This document shows, in pieces, positions 304-5,395 of a stretch of DNA of 6,260 nucleotides. The stretch lies in the IMG/VR virus record IMGVR_UViG_2737471848_000012. One strand, 5' to 3'. A program made the position numbers and the translations under genes. Below the pieces are notes generated by a model. It was not told where the DNA came from. It saw nothing but the letters and a program-made list of their open reading frames with translations, and ran no database searches. The DNA is from a virus. Its lineage: Duplodnaviria > Heunggongvirae > Uroviricota > Caudoviricetes. Position 1 is the first letter of the stretch; each line of letters starts with the position of its first letter.

Positions 304-361
304 AAAAAGGGCGGCAGAGCAGTCACGGAGTAAAACTGATACCGCCAAACGTCACCAGAAA
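304..361 (-). ncRNA. dicF: DicF small regulatory RNA (Hfq-dependent, inhibits ftsZ translation), with its intrinsic terminator
   Basis: Reverse complement of 309-361 reads TTTCTGGTGACGTTTGGCGGTATCAGTTTTACTCCGTGACTGCTCTGCCGCCC, followed by TTTTT (reverse complement of 304-308). This matches my recollection of the 53-nt E. coli DicF sequence and its GC-stem plus U-tract terminator. It lies downstream of the three small genes, as in the Qin ydfABC-dicF-dicB operon. Confidence 0.75.
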
Positions 362-1236: not shown

Positions 1237-1417
1237 GCTGACCTCATTTCCCCTTAACGCCGGGGTAGCGGAACAAAAACCTGCTGCATAGTTATTAAAG
1301 TTGAACCCTGCCGTCATGTTCTTACGCCTCGGGCTGGCTACTTAACCCCTGACCACTGCCTGGTAACTCGAGGTATTGCCCTGTATTGTGTGGGACGGGA
1401 TGGGTTGGTATGGGAAA

Positions 1418-1446
1418 ACTATAGGAAATGCCTAATTACTTGTCAA
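1418..1446 (-). promoter_or_regulatory. Leftward sigma70 promoter (PL-like) for the small-gene/dicF operon
   Basis: On the minus strand: -35 TTGACA (reverse complement of 1441-1446), 17-bp spacer, -10 TATAGT (reverse complement of 1418-1423). The -35 sits inside the 21-bp inverted repeat shared with the rightward promoter. Confidence 0.55.
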
Positions 1447-1459
1447 TAGGCTATGCCTA
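1447..1459. promoter_or_regulatory. Palindromic operator-like site TAGGC-N3-GCCTA (left copy), candidate RacR binding site
   Basis: TAGGCTATGCCTA is palindromic except at its centre and abuts the -35 of the leftward promoter. Extra GCCTAA half-sites lie at 1430-1435 (in the spacer) and 1475-1480. Confidence 0.5.
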
Positions 1460-1554
1460 ATAATTTGGGCGCGACCTAATAGGTGATGGTTTGTGGGAGA
1501 GGTAGTAGGAGTTAACTAACGGGAACTAGGAATTTCCCGTCGGACCATATAAGT

Positions 1555-2031
1555 TTAAGTTCCTGTCTTGGTGATGTTCTGGCTTTTCCGTTTTGATTCT
1601 TGATTTTTCAGATAGTTAGCTACCTTCATTTCCATTGCGGCAATGTAGGCGCGAACGTCATGATCAACCCAACTAGGCTCCGTAGCATTTCCAGATAAGA
1701 GGAAAGCCACAATTGCTCTTTTTTCATCAGAGGCGGCTTGATAAAGGCTGTTTATGTCTAAAAGTTCACTTTTTGTATCTGAAGTGGATGGGGTTGGTAT
1801 GGGGTATTCGTTAAGCCCCCAATGCTCTGGACCAACCACATCAGAAAAGAAACGCCATAGTTCTGGAAGTTTGTCTTTACTTATCGAACCTTTCTTAATC
1901 CAGTCATGGATTGATGGTGGTTGGACTTTGAAATGACGTGCGATTTCCGCCTTTGATTTGACGGCTCCTGATGCAATTTTTTTGTTAATGGCCTGCTCTA
2001 TCGCTCGGCCTAAGTCTTTACCACTAAGCAT
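1555..2031 (-). CDS. racR: RacR-like prophage repressor (158 aa, N-terminal HTH)
   Basis: The 158-aa ORF (MLSGKDLGRAIEQAINKK...) has an N-terminal HTH-like segment (SKAEIARHFKVQPPSIHDWIKKGSI). It is divergent from the Cro-like ydaS and sits between two operator-bearing promoters. Length and sequence match my recollection of K-12 RacR. RBS AGGAGA is the reverse complement of 2042-2047. Confidence 0.7.
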   Translation of the reverse strand: MLSGKDLGRAIEQAINKKIASGAVKSKAEIARHFKVQPPSIHDWIKKGSISKDKLPELWRFFSDVVGPEHWGLNEYPIPTPSTSDTKSELLDINSLYQAASDEKRAIVAFLLSGNATEPSWVDHDVRAYIAAMEMKVANYLKNQESKRKSQNITKTGT

Positions 2032-2085
2032 TGCTTAATAGTCTCCTATGCGCATCGCGTTAGGCAATCCCTACTCTCGATGTGT

Positions 2086-2124
2086 TAGGCATAGCCTATT
2101 GACAATTGTATTAGGCTAAGCCTA
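2086..2124. promoter_or_regulatory. Two palindromic operator-like sites (2086-2098 TAGGCATAGCCTA; 2112-2124 TAGGCTAAGCCTA) in the racR-ydaS intergenic region
   Basis: Same TAGGC-N3-GCCTA architecture as the left site. The first abuts the rightward -35 and the second overlaps the spacer and -10. 2085-2105 is the exact reverse complement of 1440-1460 (21 bp). One more half-site TTAGGC lies at 2060-2065. Confidence 0.55.
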
Positions 2125-2128
2125 ATAT
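2099..2128 (+). promoter_or_regulatory. Rightward sigma70 promoter (PR-like) for ydaS-ydaT and the replication genes
   Basis: -35 TTGACA (2099-2104), 18-bp spacer, -10 TAATAT (2123-2128). The predicted transcription start is about 20 nt upstream of the ydaS ATG. Confidence 0.55.
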
Positions 2129-2155
2129 TGTTGCGTGTTTTTTGGAGTTCATTCG

Positions 2156-2479
2156 ATGAAAAAAGATAACTATTCATTCAAACGAGCTTGTGCTGTTGTC
2201 GGTGGGCAATCAGCAATGGCTAGGCTTTTAGGTGTATCTCCTCCAAGCGTAAATCAATGGATCAAAGGTGTACGTCAGTTGCCTGCTGAGAGATGTCCTG
2301 CGATTGAACGAGCAACAAAAGGTGGTGTCCTGTGTGAAGAACTTCGTCCTGATGTTGATTGGACATACTTACGACGCTCGTCATGTTATTCGCAGAATAT
2401 GTCGATGAAGCAACCAAATGACGAAAACGATCATACCCGAAGCATCAAGAGGCAAATGATTCATGAAAATCAAACATGA
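2156..2479 (+). CDS. ydaS: YdaS-like Cro/CI-type HTH protein (107 aa); first gene of the rightward operon
   Basis: ATG at 2156 with GGAG at 2144-2147. The ORF-track start at 2135 is a GTG with no RBS. The motif QSAMARLLGVSPPSVNQWIKGVRQLPAERCPAIERAT is typical of the YdaS/Cro-like family, and the gene is divergent from racR as in Rac. Confidence 0.65.
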   Translation: MKKDNYSFKRACAVVGGQSAMARLLGVSPPSVNQWIKGVRQLPAERCPAIERATKGGVLCEELRPDVDWTYLRRSSCYSQNMSMKQPNDENDHTRSIKRQMIHENQT

Positions 2480-2888
2480 GCACATCCGCATGGCGATGAA
2501 TGCCTGGGCATACCCTGATGGTGAGAAAGTTCCTGCAGCTGAAATAGCCCGGACTTATTTCGAACTGGGGATGACGTTCCCTGAACTGTACGACGACAGC
2601 CATCCGGAAGCCCTGGCCCGTAATACACAGAAAATTTTCCGTTGGCTGGATAAAGACACCCCTGATGCTGTTGAAAAAATTCAGGCTCTGTTACCGGCGA
2701 TCGAAAAGGCAATGCCGCCTCTGCTGGTGGCCCGTATGCGCAGCCACAGTTCTGAATATTACCGTGAGATCGTCGAACGGAGGGATCGGCTGGTGAAGGA
2801 TGTCGATGATTTTGTTGCGTCAGCGGTTGTTTTGTATGACCAGATGAATCGCGGCGGCCCGGCAGGGAATGCTGTGGTGATGCACTAA
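2463..2888 (+). CDS. ydaT: YdaT-like protein (141 aa); toxic when derepressed in K-12 Rac, sometimes viewed as a cII analogue
   Basis: ATG at 2463 with RBS AGAGG upstream, overlapping the ydaS 3' end by 17 nt in a different frame. Size (141 aa) and position match K-12 ydaT (about 140 aa). Confidence 0.6.
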   Translation: MKIKHEHIRMAMNAWAYPDGEKVPAAEIARTYFELGMTFPELYDDSHPEALARNTQKIFRWLDKDTPDAVEKIQALLPAIEKAMPPLLVARMRSHSSEYYREIVERRDRLVKDVDDFVASAVVLYDQMNRGGPAGNAVVMH

Positions 2889-2910
2889 AAGCACGGTGTT
2901 CGGGGGTTTT

Positions 2911-3873
2911 ATGAGCAGCAAGCTTCATGGTCTTGTCTGGGAAGGGTGCGCCTTCACCGGCATGATCTTATCCAGGGTGGCGGTTATGGCCCGTCTTGCA
3001 GACTACAGCAATGACGAGGGCGTGTCATGGCCTGCCATTGAAACTATCCGGCGTCAGATCGGTGCAAGAAGTGAATCCACAGTGAAATCGGCTATTGCAG
3101 AACTGGCGAAAGAGGGCTGGCTGACGAAGGAAGAGCGTAAGGTCGGTGGGCGTAATGTAAGCAATATCTATCGGCTTAATGTGGAAAAACTCGAAGCAGC
3201 TGCTGCGGCGGCGCGTGAGTCATATAAACCGAAAAGAAAAATTAGCCCGGCAAAAAATGACCCGTTAACAGTTGACCCGTCAAATATTGCCCCCTCAACG
3301 GTTGACCCGTCAAATTTTGATGGATCAACTGTTGATAACAAACTGCCGATTAGGGGGGCGATGATTGACCCCGATCCGTCAGTATTAAAACCTGATCCGT
3401 CAGATAAAAGATCTTCTTGTCCGGACGCTTCGCAACCGGACCCGCAGACGGCTGAACAGAATTTTTTAACCCGACACCCTGACGCGGTTGTGTTCAGTGC
3501 GAAAAAACGCCAGTGGGGAAGTCAGGAAGATTTGGTGTGCGCACAGTGGATCTGGGGACGAATCGTGAGTCTTTACGAGCAGGCGGCCAGCGATGATGGC
3601 GAGATCACGAGACCGAAAGAACCCAACTGGACTGCATGGGCCAATGACGTGCGGACAATGCGGATGCTGGATGGCAGAACTCACAGACAAATTTGTGAAA
3701 TGTTTGGGCGTCTCCAGCGGGATTCGTTCTGGGTAAAAAACATCATGAGTCCGGCAAAACTCCGGGAAAAATGGGATGAACTGGTTATCCGCCTGGGGCG
3801 TTCGCCCGCGCAGCGTTGCGTGAATCACATTTCTGAACCGGACACTGAAATACCGCCGGGATTCAGGGGGTGA
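2911..3873 (+). CDS. ydaU: Replication initiator, YdaU-like (lambda O analogue): N-terminal winged-helix DNA-binding domain, repeat-rich linker encoded by the iterons, C-terminal domain
   Basis: ATG at 2911 with GGGGG 4 nt upstream. The ORF-track start at 2896 is a GTG. The N-terminus (ILSRVAVMARLADYSNDEGVSWPAIETIRRQIGARSESTVKSAIAELAKEGWL) resembles phage replication-initiator winged-helix domains. The linker has repeats TVDPSN x2 and DPS-rich segments. It sits directly upstream of the DnaC-like gene. Confidence 0.55.
   Translation: MSSKLHGLVWEGCAFTGMILSRVAVMARLADYSNDEGVSWPAIETIRRQIGARSESTVKSAIAELAKEGWLTKEERKVGGRNVSNIYRLNVEKLEAAAAAARESYKPKRKISPAKNDPLTVDPSNIAPSTVDPSNFDGSTVDNKLPIRGAMIDPDPSVLKPDPSDKRSSCPDASQPDPQTAEQNFLTRHPDAVVFSAKKRQWGSQEDLVCAQWIWGRIVSLYEQAASDDGEITRPKEPNWTAWANDVRTMRMLDGRTHRQICEMFGRLQRDSFWVKNIMSPAKLREKWDELVIRLGRSPAQRCVNHISEPDTEIPPGFRG
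3258..3413. repeat. Iteron array and GATC cluster inside ydaU-like gene: candidate prophage replication origin
   Basis: Perfect 15-mer GTTGACCCGTCAAAT at 3271-3285 and 3301-3315 (30-bp phasing), each with internal dyad TTGAC-CC-GTCAA. Partial copies at 3258-3270 and 3331-3339. A second pair, GATCCGTCAG, at 3373-3382 and 3394-3403 (21-bp phasing). Four GATC sites fall within 91 bp (3323-3413). An AT-rich tract GAATTTTTTAAC follows at 3459-3470. Confidence 0.6.
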
Positions 3874-3879
3874 CGTGTC

Positions 3880-4620
3880 ATGAAAAACATTGCGGCAGTT
3901 GGGGTTCTTGAACGTATTCGCAGACTTGCACCACAGGGGGCGGTTCCACCGTACCGGACGGTGGAGGAGTGGCGGGAATGGCAACTTGCTGAAGGACGAA
4001 AACGCAGCGAGGAGATTAACCGCCTGAATCATCAGGTGCGGGTTGAAAAAATCCTGAACCGTGCGGGCATCCAGCCGCTTCACAGGAAGTGCTCATTCGG
4101 GAACTACCGGGTGCAGAACGACGGTCAGCGCCATGCTCTGAGCCAGGCGAAATCCATTGCCGATGAATTGATGACCGGATGTACAAACTTCGTGTTCAGC
4201 GGTAAACCTGGTACCGGTAAAAATCACCTGGCAGCAGCGATTGGCAATCGGCTGATGGCGAAGGGGAGAAGCGTGATTATCGTCACCGTGTCCGATGTCA
4301 TGAGCGTGTTGCATGACGGCTACGACAACGGCCAGTCCGGGGAAAAATTTTTACAGGAGCTTTGTGGAGTTGACCTTCTGGTCCTTGATGAAATTGGCAT
4401 GCAGCGGGATACGCGCAACGAGCAGGTCACGCTGAACCAGATAGTCGACCGCAGAACGGCTTCGATGCGTAGTGTCGGAATGCTGACGAACCTGAATCAC
4501 GCAGCGATGAGCACACTCCTCGGAGATCGGGTGATGGACCGTATGACCATGAATGGTGGTCGTTGGGTGAATTTTAACTGGGAGAGCTGGCGGTCAAACG
4601 TTGGACGTCAGGGTATGTGA
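3880..4620 (+). CDS. ydaV: DnaC-like AAA+ helicase loader (YdaV-like, 246 aa)
   Basis: Walker A FVFSGKPGTGKNHLAAAIG and Walker B LLVLDEIG, with overall resemblance to E. coli DnaC. Length equals K-12 YdaV (246 aa). RBS GGGGGTGA upstream; the start follows the ydaU stop by 6 nt. Confidence 0.7.
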   Translation: MKNIAAVGVLERIRRLAPQGAVPPYRTVEEWREWQLAEGRKRSEEINRLNHQVRVEKILNRAGIQPLHRKCSFGNYRVQNDGQRHALSQAKSIADELMTGCTNFVFSGKPGTGKNHLAAAIGNRLMAKGRSVIIVTVSDVMSVLHDGYDNGQSGEKFLQELCGVDLLVLDEIGMQRDTRNEQVTLNQIVDRRTASMRSVGMLTNLNHAAMSTLLGDRVMDRMTMNGGRWVNFNWESWRSNVGRQGM

Positions 4621-4645: not shown

Positions 4646-5395
4646 ATGGAAACTGTATTGCATGCACTGAAAGCGATGGGAAAAGCCAATTCTGTTGAAC
4701 TGGCGGCGCGGCTTGATATCAGCCGTGAAGAAGTTCTTAACGAACTGTGGGAACTCAAAAAAAATGGCGTTGTTGATAAAACGGGTCACACCTGGTTTCT
4801 GGCTGTCGAAGGTGAAGCCGGGGTAACCGAAGGGCAGGCACTACAACCTGAAGCGCCGGATGTGGTAACCGAAGAGGTCGCTCCAAAAGTTACCGCAGAC
4901 ATGATGGTTGAGTTTATCGGTCAGGATGGTGCTAAAACGTGTGAGGAACTGGCGGGTAAGTTCGGCGTCAGTACTCGCAAGGTTGCTTCCACGCTGGCGG
5001 TGGTAACCGCAACGGGGCGGCTGGCACGCGTTAATCAGAACGGTAAATTTCGTTACTGCATGTCGGGGGGTAATTTACCAGCAGATCCGAAAGCCGCGCC
5101 GGTAACGAAAAATGATGGTAAGGCCTTTCCTCAGCCAGCAGGTGCTGCGTTACCAGTCCGGGAAGCCGCAACACAGGAAGAAATTAAAACAGAAACTGTG
5201 GCGGACATTGTGCAGCCGTTGCTATCGTTTACCGAAACGCAAGCAGATGAGCTGATTTTTCCGTCCCTGCGCAGGGCGAAAAGTGATGTTCAGAAGTGGG
5301 AGCGAGTCTGCGCCGCGCTGCGGGAGCTGAACAAGCACCGGGATATTGTTCGACAGATTACTGATTCTTCCCGCCGTGTTGTATCGGAAAAGTGA
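4646..5395 (+). CDS. 249-aa prophage protein with two predicted winged-helix-like domains joined by Pro/Ala/Glu-rich linkers (DUF1627/YdaW-like?); function unknown
   Basis: ATG at 4646 with RBS GAGGTAA. HTH-like segments SVELAARLDISREEVLNELWELKKNGVV and CEELAGKFGVSTRKVASTLAVVTATGRLARV. Family assignment is tentative and from memory. Confidence 0.5.
   Translation: METVLHALKAMGKANSVELAARLDISREEVLNELWELKKNGVVDKTGHTWFLAVEGEAGVTEGQALQPEAPDVVTEEVAPKVTADMMVEFIGQDGAKTCEELAGKFGVSTRKVASTLAVVTATGRLARVNQNGKFRYCMSGGNLPADPKAAPVTKNDGKAFPQPAGAALPVREAATQEEIKTETVADIVQPLLSFTETQADELIFPSLRRAKSDVQKWERVCAALRELNKHRDIVRQITDSSRRVVSEK

Follow-up and report, generated by a model that had tools for sequence, protein, structure and literature searches.

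Genes and regulatory sites at the locus

The locus described here lies within a 6,260-nucleotide stretch of DNA from a virus of the Caudoviricetes (IMG/VR record IMGVR_UViG_2737471848_000012), referred to below as the window. It harbors racR and, to the right of this divergent repressor gene, a rightward series in which ydaS and ydaT are followed by O-like and DnaC-like genes, identified from the list of open reading frames and from Pfam and PHROG assignments (Table 1). The names and arrangement given to racR, ydaS and ydaT in a preliminary description of the sequence are borne out by the reading frames, Pfam, NCBIfam and BLASTP comparison with K-12, and a genome segment identical to the window has the three genes at the same coordinates in its RefSeq annotation. 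RacR matches the NCBIfam equivalog model NF049929 with 246.8 bits (cutoff 200). The two replication genes, together spanning 2911-4620, match PHROG 391 (6.9e-115) and PHROG 50 (1.2e-81), Pfam HTH_36 and IstB_IS21, and NCBIfam PRK12377. The left arm of the window carries a DUF1391-ydfB-ydfC-DicF operon; the matching genome also has dicB and ydfD, and its prophage is located at tRNA-Ser/mtfA.

Candidate RacR operators were sought with the pattern WTAGGC-N3-GCCTAW, allowing up to two mismatches, the consensus being taken from PMC9638921. Six matches are found in the window, where 0.53 are expected, and none of 200 shuffled sequences reached that number. They fall into two clusters, one on either side of racR, which flank or overlap two strong promoter matches, one on each strand. 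The predicted operators at 2060-2125 surround a near-consensus rightward promoter, PR, with the hexamers and spacing of the experimentally characterized PydaST of K-12 (PMC11879457). The sequence of K-12 operator 3 (PMC9638921), ACTAAGCATTGCTTAATATTCTC, is found with one change at 2023-2045. The leftward, PL-like promoter is predicted to face into the DUF1391-ydfB-ydfC-DicF operon, and a perfect inverted repeat of 21 nt that is common to the PL-like and PR regions holds the PL-like -35 element and the adjoining operator. Judged from these sites, RacR appears also to control the leftward promoter of the DicF-bearing operon in this prophage.

A further leftward promoter, the counterpart of K-12 PracR4, is predicted within ydaS. 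Its -35 element reads CTGACG in 42 of 44 loci with the window type of ydaS and TTGACG in 28 of 28 loci of the K-12 type, and it lies 12 nt nearer to the YdaT-box than in K-12; because of these two differences, activation by YdaT could differ in amount from that in K-12. A look by eye for a CP-933P-like PRE next to the box gave a TATGAT 20 nt leftward of it, with a poor -35.

Table 1. Genes and sites of the locus, in window coordinates
Feature	Position	Strand	Basis or remark
PL-like promoter: TTGACA, 17-nt spacer, TATAGT; 11/12 consensus positions	1418-1446	-	Promoter scan
Predicted RacR operators, OL-like (three)	1421-1435, 1446-1460, 1465-1479		Pattern search
racR, predicted CI-analogue repressor, 158 aa	1555-2031	-	92% identity to K-12 RacR; NCBIfam; RefSeq name racR
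Degenerate candidate RacR site over racR start codon	2025-2040		Inverted repeat and pattern search
Predicted RacR operators, OR (three)	2060-2074, 2085-2099, 2111-2125		Pattern search; OR region 2025-2125
PR (PydaST): TTGACA, 18-nt spacer, TAATAT	2099-2128	+	Promoter scan; upstream of ydaS, ydaT and replication genes
ydaS, putative Cro analogue, 107 aa	ATG 2156 to TGA 2477-2479	+	Pfam, BLASTP, AlphaFold model
Putative PracR4 counterpart (PRE analogue) in ydaS: -35 CTGACG 2273-2278, -10 TACGCT 2246-2251	2246-2278	-	K-12 hexamers (PMC11879457)
CGA codon (YdaS Arg95) at the position of the K-12 ydaS TGA stop	2438-2440	+	DNA alignment; junctions of 8 loci
Shine-Dalgarno-like AAGAGG of ydaT	2447-2452	+	10 nt 5' of the ATG, within the ydaS frame
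Mosaic joint	2455-2487		Homology breakpoints
YdaT-box, predicted YdaT site: half-sites ATGATT and AATCAA, spacer CATGAA	2456-2473		Pattern search; ydaT ATG in spacer
ydaS/ydaT overlap, 17 nt	2463-2479	+	Reading frames and raw sequence; ydaS ends ATG ATT CAT GAA AAT CAA ACA TGA
ydaT, CP-933P-type putative CII-analogue activator, 141 aa	ATG 2463 to TAA 2886-2888	+	phmmer, Pfam, PHROG
O-like initiator gene	2911-3873	+	PHROG and Pfam; same operon, downstream of ydaT
DnaC-like helicase loader gene	3880-4620	+	Same operon, downstream of the O-like gene

The ydaS and ydaT alleles and their joint

As in Rac, the rightward operon opens with a gene for a helix-turn-helix protein of the YdaS family. YdaS is 85% identical to its K-12 counterpart over the BLASTP local alignment, and matches Pfam YdaS_toxin (PF15943; 3.8e-30, 103.9 bits against a cutoff of 30) and P22_Cro (1e-8). 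It had been described as longer than the K-12 protein, at about 107 rather than roughly 98 amino acids, perhaps on account of a different start or a different C-terminus. The greater length is confirmed by the reading frames and by DNA alignment with K-12, which places its cause at the C-terminus and leaves the start unchanged. After window position 2428 the gene lacks 12 nt of the K-12 sequence, an in-frame loss of four codons, and further on a CGA codon stands in place of the K-12 TGA. Translation thus continues for 13 more codons to a TGA within ydaT, which accounts for the 107 residues (98 - 4 + 13) and places the K-12 stop 39 nt earlier than that of the window. As to the direction of change, we infer that the K-12 TGA is probably the derived state, having arisen as a nonsense change.

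The helix-turn-helix core of YdaS occupies residues 6-74 or thereabouts, and the tail, residues 75-107, is predicted to be disordered. In an AlphaFold model the core has pLDDT values of 84-92 and the tail of about 50, and the best fold match is the Xfaso 1 Cro protein (3bd1; rmsd 1.4-1.5 A, target-normalized TM 0.84-0.87). As modeled, YdaS is an all-alpha Cro fold with a low-confidence tail. The homologue search behind the model gave 37 mostly singleton clusters, from which the main K-12 cluster was absent, and served solely as the alignment for structure prediction. The analogy with Cro is nevertheless imperfect, since K-12 YdaS does not repress racR in the way that lambda Cro represses cI (PMC9638921).

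YdaT is of a different type from that of K-12. It shares 31% identity with K-12 YdaT but about 95% (phmmer E = 1.2e-88, about 7 differences in 140 residues) with the CP-933P protein, whose structure, PDB 8bt1, is a POU-like helix-turn-helix tetramer to which the window protein corresponds; the recognition helix retains Arg60 and Trp61. It also matches Pfam YdaT_toxin (PF06254; 42.6 bits, cutoff 21) and PHROG 163, "CII-like transcriptional activator" (2.2e-47). Similarity to the K-12 counterpart on alignment holds for YdaS; for YdaT, membership of the family stands and orthology with the K-12 gene does not, which makes the locus a mosaic of Rac and CP-933P types. Both YdaT types are tetrameric helix-turn-helix activators that bind a box at the joint of ydaS and ydaT and turn on a leftward promoter for the repressor gene (PMC9986795, PMC11879457, PMC8630535), and the Rac and CP-933P proteins cross-activate a box-dependent promoter (PMC11879457).

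The 17-nt, out-of-frame overlap of ydaS and ydaT recorded in the preliminary description is present in the raw sequence. The two frames differ because (2463-2156) mod 3 = 1, and the ydaS stop spans codons 5-6 of ydaT. The published YdaT-box, ATGATTCATGAAAATCAA, lies across the ydaT start codon at 2456-2473. The pattern TTGATT-N6-AATCAA finds one site, with 1 mismatch, and as 78 of 200 shuffles also contain one, the match is not significant on its own. The box is accepted solely for its identity in sequence and position to footprinted sites: it agrees in every letter with the footprinted YdaT-box of K-12 (PMC11879457), and its position is that of the CP-933P OM site (PMC9986795). Every allele retains a Shine-Dalgarno sequence for ydaT, with GGAG-like motifs at the same place in the others. 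Homology with K-12 Rac is near-identical up to 2486 and then falls to the level of unrelated sequence, whereas homology to prophages that carry other cro genes begins at 2455-2458 (search query positions 76-79). The predicted fold of the junction RNA, 2425-2500, has a free energy of -9.9 kcal/mol, no better than that of shuffled sequences (z = 0.33), and within this segment no structured coupling element was found.

Related switches and the distribution of the joint

The Rac prophage of K-12 (b1356-b1358) resembles the locus in its divergent layout and operator consensus, and in the identity of the YdaT-box, the ydaT Shine-Dalgarno sequence and the first 8 ydaT codons. Apart from the ydaT allele, the ydaS with its 4-codon deletion and without the K-12 stop, and the altered reverse-promoter -35, which differs by one base, it is unlike the locus in having a 22-nt gap between ydaS and ydaT where the window has its overlap. 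Its downstream replication gene is ydaU, in place of the O-like gene (HTH_36/DnaD_N) found here, and its left arm holds sieB and kilR, in place of ydfB, ydfC and DicF.

The paaR2-ydaS-ydaT module of CP-933P (Sp12) in O157:H7, the source of the crystallized and footprinted YdaT, likewise has its box where the cro-like gene ends and ydaT begins, with an overlap of 4 nt, and its Cro and CII roles have been shown experimentally (PMC8630535). It differs in its repressor, PaaR2, with an embedded paaA2-parE2 toxin-antitoxin pair, in its operators and in the first base of the box (TTGATT there, ATGATT here). Its YdaS is of another family, with 100 amino acids, a GVDS ending and weak similarity to that of the window (E = 0.001); a 108-aa cro family was also considered as CP-933P YdaS and rejected, as the 100-aa family matches instead.

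More broadly, the order of repressor, divergent promoters with triple operators, cro, cII, O and P is that of lambda, and so is the second operator/promoter set (OL/PL) beyond the repressor gene. By analogy, leftward transcription to the repressor gene may here too be driven from an activator site located where cro meets cII. Such parallels for these prophage switches have been drawn previously (PMC5917428, PMC8630535, PMC11879457). The parallel is one of organization, however: published work reports no detectable similarity to lambda, and none of the lambda-family Pfam models (lambda Cro, CI, CII) is among the hits, YdaS matching P22_Cro and YdaS_toxin and YdaT matching YdaT_toxin only. The YdaT site is an inverted repeat, whereas that of lambda is a direct TTGC-N6-TTGC repeat; in K-12 Rac the activated promoter is about 190 bp from the box; and, as stated above, K-12 YdaS departs from lambda Cro in its behavior towards racR.

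The joint was surveyed in 167 loci, mostly E. coli prophages. Since these were picked by similarity to the two YdaT types, the overlap can be called generic for this set only. It measures 4 nt in 60 loci and 17 nt in 77; the main exception is the K-12-type ydaS, with its gap, in 28 loci, and two further loci have short gaps. At least 12 cro-like families, confirmed by Pfam as HTH/Cro, end within the conserved box region in front of the same ydaT types, and unrelated families share the endings that the box encodes, either IHENQA/T or VDS followed by the stop. A single G in a run of G residues toggles one cro family between both endings (loci L067 and L078). This conserved region, some 30 bp long, contains a stop in both non-ydaT frames and usually also in the ydaT frame (TGA 2457-2459). 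K-12-type ydaS is found with both ydaT types, and the state of the stop codon tracks the ydaS allele rather than the ydaT allele (L092).

The window type of ydaS encodes 107 aa and has a 17-nt overlap in all 44 of its loci in the survey, from IMG/VR and from genomes, and in every sampled allele down to 93% amino acid identity. Of 5426 complete E. coli genomes, about 506 carry it, O157:H7 being one of these, and about 584 carry the K-12 type; the exact proteins of the locus are in RefSeq and occur in hundreds of genomes, again with O157:H7 among them. A scan of genome contigs yielded just four loci, from E. albertii, Shigella, Serratia and a probably misbinned "Collinsella" MAG. In the phage collections searched there was no isolated phage with the whole module, which makes it essentially a prophage feature; phage vB_EcoS-683R6, with a Rac-type repressor, covers 68% at 87.6% identity.

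Interpretation of the module

We consider it highly probable, at roughly 85%, that 1418-2888 is the lysis-lysogeny switch of an E. coli lambdoid prophage of Rac immunity, in a mosaic variant, and that the overlap is a by-product of its architecture. RacR would act as the CI analogue on 15-bp operators, (T/A)TAGGC-N3-GCCTA(T/A), with a set of three at each of OR and OL, which overlap PR and its mirror-image leftward promoter, and would thereby silence both early operons. On loss of repression, PR would yield one message for ydaS, ydaT, the O-like and the DnaC-like genes. YdaS would then serve as the Cro analogue, and YdaT, as a tetrameric CII analogue, would bind the inverted repeat over its own start codon and activate the leftward promoter within ydaS, feeding expression of racR. 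The YdaT-box with the first 8 ydaT codons would be a conserved stretch that serves as the junction between differing modules of the cro and ydaT types. A ydaS allele without a stop of its own before this joint reads through the box, ending M-I-H-E-N-Q-T, to the TGA inside ydaT. Repression by RacR and binding and activation by YdaT have been shown for K-12 and CP-933P (PMC9986795, PMC11879457, PMC8630535, PMC9638921), and by analogy would be expected to operate at the present locus.

A different account of the overlap holds that it has been selected for translational coupling, such that ribosomes ending ydaS at 2477-2479 would reinitiate at the ydaT AUG 14 nt upstream and so fix the ratio of YdaS to YdaT. 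The cro-like gene does end 4 or 17 nt into ydaT in 137 of the 167 loci, and ATGA overlaps are a classic coupling arrangement. In K-12, moreover, ydaS and ydaT share a single transcript with no separate ydaT promoter (PMC11879457). Yet the K-12-type allele with its gap is found just as often in E. coli and functional YdaT is still made from it, ydaT has a Shine-Dalgarno sequence of its own whatever the allele, and the junction RNA lacks any structure that would tie ydaT to translation upstream. The box and the conserved YdaT N-terminus force the stops in any case, and separate selection is unneeded as an explanation. Selected coupling seems to us doubtful; it is compatible with the switch described above and bears only on whether coupling matters.

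The reading of ydaS and ydaT as a toxin-antitoxin-like or two-toxin module, with RacR as an antidote-like repressor and the overlap as a means of stoichiometric coupling, corresponds to the "conditional-lethal module" of the preliminary description and draws on names and on K-12 genetics. Pfam has YdaS_toxin and YdaT_toxin, and RefSeq a "toxin YdaT family protein". The K-12 background invoked at the outset is well founded: racR is essential there because it represses ydaS and ydaT, cannot be deleted unless both are gone, and expression of the pair is toxic (PMC5700373, PMC5700377), with YdaT causing filamentation via rcsA (PMC11879457). The preliminary description treated the choice between toxin-antitoxin partners and Cro/cII analogues as debated. 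Published work has largely settled it, however, in favor of Cro and CII analogues (PMC9986795, PMC11879457, PMC8630535). Fold and experiment alike mark both proteins as DNA-binding regulators, earlier tests cited in PMC5917428 and PMC8630535 gave no toxin-antitoxin behavior, and the toxin names trace to a 2007 prediction (PMC5917428). No toxin-fold family appears among the YdaS and YdaT matches, nor is the covariation of a type II cognate pair seen: one and the same ydaT accompanies at least 12 cro-like genes, and K-12-type ydaS occurs with both ydaT types, which fits modular regulators rather than a co-evolving toxin and antidote. The overlap itself carries no specific information on a toxin pair, for unrelated cro-like genes end likewise.

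The K-12 lethality is, in addition, not simply transferable to the present locus, as the CP-933P homologue of its YdaT gave no detectable toxicity on overexpression (PMC8630535). Were RacR to control the leftward operon with DicF and, in the matching genome, dicB and ydfD, lethality on racR loss need not stem from ydaS and ydaT at all. The toxin-pair reading, which for K-12 and CP-933P has for the most part been refuted already, is here very improbable.

Still less credible is damage to the 107-aa ydaS, through stop loss or a sequencing artefact, in a cryptic prophage undergoing decay. Although the gene has an indel and a changed stop relative to the K-12 reference and the integrase of the matching prophage in strain A1 is frameshifted, the idea is already contradicted by the population data, in which the form recurs at 93-100% amino acid identity and unchanged length in independent complete genomes, and also by the in-frame indel, by an extension that lies outside the folded domain of the model and by the like endings of unrelated cro genes.

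Earlier publications already cover the module with its operators and YdaT-box, and the Cro and CII roles of its proteins; the present finding is real but ordinary. A toxin pair should not be deduced from labels such as YdaS_toxin and "toxin YdaT family protein", and the toxicity results for K-12 YdaT should not be extended to this allele, given its 31% identity.

A possible, though rather unlikely, further role is that the segment of about 30 bp made up of the box with ydaT codons 1-8 is a universal linker for the exchange of modules among lambdoid prophages, the overlap setting the ratio of Cro to CII and the early K-12 stop being a derived change that uncouples the two; as far as we have found, the published work on this switch makes no statement of such a role. 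If this were so, any incoming cro-type gene would be cleanly terminated and coupled to the translation of ydaT. Within the surveyed set, the overlapping arrangement is the family-wide rule, and the separated ydaS and ydaT of K-12 are the exception.

Identities of the genes and the mosaic joint

The region harbors three genes whose identities as racR, ydaS and ydaT, proposed in the preliminary description, can be regarded as secure from sequence comparison with K-12 and from family matches. RacR shares 92% identity with RacR of the K-12 cryptic prophage Rac and exceeds the NCBIfam RacR equivalog cutoff (246.8 bits versus 200). The window's YdaS aligns locally with K-12 YdaS at 85% identity (BLASTP) and matches the Pfam families YdaS_toxin and P22_Cro, and YdaT matches Pfam YdaT_toxin as well as PHROG 163, "CII-like transcriptional activator". 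A segment of E. coli strain A1 is 100% identical over window positions 1400-3000, with exactly equal RefSeq gene coordinates. The described 17-nt overlap is likewise present: positions 2463-2479 are common to ydaS and ydaT in different frames.

Features of the window (coordinates are window positions)
Feature	Position	Strand	Remark
DicF sRNA, full-length	309-360	-	Rfam RF00039, 76.7 bits vs gathering score 48
ydfC	703-921
DUF1391 gene	1081-1236/1317
PL-like promoter, TTGACA-17-TATAGT	1446-1418	-	promoter scan
Three RacR-operator matches	1421-1479		around TTGACA-17-TATAGT promoter
racR	1555-2031	-	158 aa; ORF list and raw sequence
Three RacR-operator matches	2060-2125		around TTGACA-18-TAATAT promoter
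PR (PydaST), TTGACA-18-TAATAT	2099-2128	+	promoter scan
ydaS	ATG 2156 to TGA 2477-2479	+	107 aa; ORF list and raw sequence
PracR4 counterpart (predicted)	2246-2278	-	-35 CTGACG (2273-2278), not TTGACG
YdaT-box, ATGATTCATGAAAATCAA	2456-2473		contains the ydaT start codon (ATG)
ydaT	ATG 2463 to 2888	+	141 aa; ORF list and raw sequence
O-like replication initiator	2911-3873		3' of ydaT
DnaC-like helicase loader	3880-4620		3' of ydaT

In pairwise alignment the DNA is near-colinear with K-12 Rac from racR through the first ydaT codons, and the similarity then breaks off sharply after 2486, at ydaT codon 8. The gene had been assumed to be the ydaT of K-12, which is incorrect: its product is only 31% identical to K-12 YdaT and about 95% identical to YdaT of CP-933P, a cryptic prophage of E. 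coli O157:H7 (PDB 8bt1, E = 1.2e-88). K-12 also has a different replication gene and a different left arm. With 2380-2900 as the query, this ydaT type is found in about 2965 of 5426 complete E. coli genomes, where the matches adjoin many differently annotated regulators and begin at window 2455-2458. Since the matches begin there and K-12 similarity ends at 2486, the stretch 2455-2486 is common to both kinds of neighbor, and it is the place where modules join. Exchange at the YdaT-box runs in both directions, as L092 (E. coli ETEC1738, NZ_CP122768.1, 1614-2358) is a natural recombinant of K-12-type ydaS (98 aa, followed by a 22-nt gap) and a CP-933P-like ydaT 84% identical to that of the window.

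The A1 prophage (L001, NZ_CP029328.1) is located beside tRNA-Ser and mtfA, a different place from the Rac site of K-12, and has dicB, ydfD, ydfC and ydfB. Its integrase and DUF1627 gene are annotated as frameshifted, whereas the DUF1627 ORF of the window (4646-5395) is intact, which points to a close relative of A1, and not A1 itself, as the origin of the window. A 1.8-kb contig from a MAG labelled Collinsella sp. (L084, JAIHTM010000357.1) holds an E. coli-type cro-like gene, a YdaT-box and a ydaT 83% identical to the window's; it was placed in an actinobacterial MAG, most likely through misbinning of a prophage fragment of enterobacterial origin. Directly 3' of the racR stop on the minus strand, a short GC-rich inverted repeat (CGGGAA...TTCCCG, 1521-1541) could be the racR terminator; it was not reported by a consensus terminator scan of the window.

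Early promoters and the proposed switch

The RacR operator has the consensus (T/A)TAGGC-N3-GCCTA(T/A) (PMC9638921), which is matched six times in the window against 0.53 expected; none of 200 shuffles contained six. PR does not differ from the characterised K-12 PydaST in hexamers or spacing. The two operator sets have in common a 21-nt perfect inverted repeat, at 1440-1460 and 2085-2105 (TTGTCAATAGGCTATGCCTAA / TTAGGCATAGCCTATTGACAA), that contains both a RacR operator match and the -35 TTGACA, so that the two early promoters, leftward and rightward, mirror each other exactly there. Such an arrangement of operators and promoters, OR/PR with OL/PL, is that of a lambdoid immunity region.

The YdaT-box, an inverted repeat over the ydaT start, is letter-for-letter equal to the site footprinted in K-12 (PMC11879457) and one base apart from the CP-933P site TTGATT-N6-AATCAA (PMC9986795). 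In K-12, YdaT depends on the box to activate the reverse promoter PracR4 inside ydaS by as much as 29-fold; this promoter raises racR expression, and CP-933P YdaT activates PracR4 as well as the K-12 protein does (PMC11879457). At the -35 of the PracR4 counterpart, 42 of 44 window-type ydaS loci have CTGACG and 28 of 28 K-12-type loci have TTGACG, and the YdaT-box is 12 nt nearer to this hexamer in the window type. The window's YdaT retains Arg60 and Trp61 of the recognition helix, of which Arg60 is the sole fully conserved residue (PMC9986795).

YdaS was modelled with AlphaFold from an alignment of 26 sequences, and residues 6-74 form a confidently predicted helical core (pLDDT 84-92). For this core, superposition on 3bd1, the all-alpha Cro of the Xylella prophage Xfaso 1, gives an rmsd of 1.4-1.5 A and a target-normalised TM of 0.84-0.87; a sequence search also finds 3bd1 (E = 2.8e-10). 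Further fold matches are CP-933P YdaS, N15 Cro and the lambda cI N-terminal domain.

In the proposed switch, RacR would keep PR and the PL-like promoter silent. Upon failed repression, PR would transcribe ydaS, ydaT and the replication genes, after which YdaS would act at OR as a Cro analogue and YdaT, as a CII analogue, would bind the YdaT-box and drive leftward transcription toward racR. This mechanism has been shown for K-12 Rac and CP-933P (PMC8630535, PMC9638921, PMC9986795, PMC11879457), and identical sites and near-identical proteins make it most likely here also.

Consequences of repressor loss

The preliminary description regarded the module as conditionally lethal. In K-12, racR is essential as the repressor of ydaS and ydaT (PMC5700373, PMC5700377), and YdaT toxicity operates via rcsA activation and filamentation (PMC11879457). 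The case for transferring the K-12 lethality to this locus is weaker, because CP-933P-type YdaT, the type present in the window, showed no toxic effect when overexpressed (PMC8630535), and because the leftward operon contains DicF. This sRNA lies downstream of ydfC, ydfB and the DUF1391 gene in that operon, which has the PL-like promoter at its start and is apparently under RacR control; in the matching A1 genome the operon also includes dicB and ydfD. DicF, dicB and ydfD have division-inhibiting or lytic functions, and the functions of this operon alone could be sufficient to make repressor loss harmful. A Qin-like dicF/dicB arm would thus come under a repressor of Rac immunity.

Jobling argued that it is within its own prophage that a prophage repressor is essential (PMC5917428), and regulators under such repression are not thereby toxins. 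The framing of ydaS and ydaT as a toxin pair lacks support, given their Cro/CII roles in K-12 and CP-933P and a YdaT type reported as non-toxic (PMC8630535). Toxin or Cro/cII roles were described as debated; the matter is largely settled in favor of Cro/CII analogues (PMC8630535, PMC9986795, PMC11879457). The original observation is confirmed and its interpretation partly supported.

The ydaS/ydaT junction

YdaS was correctly noted to be about 107 aa, versus about 98 aa in K-12, and a different start or C-terminus was suggested; the start codon is unchanged, and it is the C-terminus that differs. Relative to K-12, 12 nt (4 codons) are missing after 2428, and the position of the K-12 TGA stop is CGA (2438-2440). 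A further 13 codons, R-S-I-K-R-Q-M-I-H-E-N-Q-T, are therefore translated, and 98 - 4 + 13 gives 107. The extension crosses the ydaT Shine-Dalgarno sequence (AAGAGG, 2447-2452), the YdaT-box and the ydaT ATG, and ends at a TGA formed by ydaT codons 5-6. Residues 75-107, the whole extension included, are modelled without secondary structure (pLDDT about 50).

For the survey of the junction, loci with the window's YdaT type were taken from IMG/VR (80) and from genomes (4), loci with the K-12 type from IMG/VR (80), and six loci from complete genomes. The end of the upstream gene was located in each of the 167 loci where that gene is complete. A 17-nt overlap is found in 77 (44 window-type ydaS, 33 other cro-like genes) and a 4-nt overlap (ATGA) in 60; K-12-type ydaS, with a gap of 22 nt (61 nt in one), accounts for 28, and other junctions, with a gap of 10 or 13 nt, for 2. 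Overlap is a generic feature of this set of ydaT loci, and the separated genes of K-12 are therefore the outlier; on the simplest reading, the K-12 TGA probably arose by a CGA-to-TGA change. CP-933P YdaS, which has been studied experimentally (PDB 8c7k), belongs to a 100-aa family with the 4-nt overlap. Stop-codon state tracks the ydaS allele rather than the ydaT allele, as in L092. Rac-type ydaS occurs in 1090 of 5426 complete E. coli genomes, and identity bands together with six sampled loci divide these into a window-type group of about 506, with 90% identity or more across the full query, and a K-12-type group of about 584.

The genes upstream of ydaT comprise at least 12 families of 71-108 aa, assigned by Pfam to P22_Cro, YdaS or HTH_3. 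Families in one frame end in IHENQ(A/T)-stop and those in the other in (V)DS-stop, which are the YdaT-box read in the two non-ydaT frames. Just 5' of the ydaT ATG, the IMG/VR loci L067 and L078 have G-runs of 6 versus 7; the difference shifts the frame of one cro-like family, which ends in GGIHENQA-stop (17-nt overlap) or GGDS-stop (4-nt overlap). Both forms are natural, and a tail that a single G can switch is therefore without protein-level selection. The overlap may add some translational coupling, but ydaT has its own Shine-Dalgarno sequence in every allele, K-12 functions without the overlap, and the junction RNA is not significantly structured (z = 0.33).

The system is of a kind already known, and its combination of alleles is natural and common. 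A mildly new point is that essentially all upstream cro-like genes of the family terminate in the YdaT-box region, which makes the separated genes of K-12 the exception.
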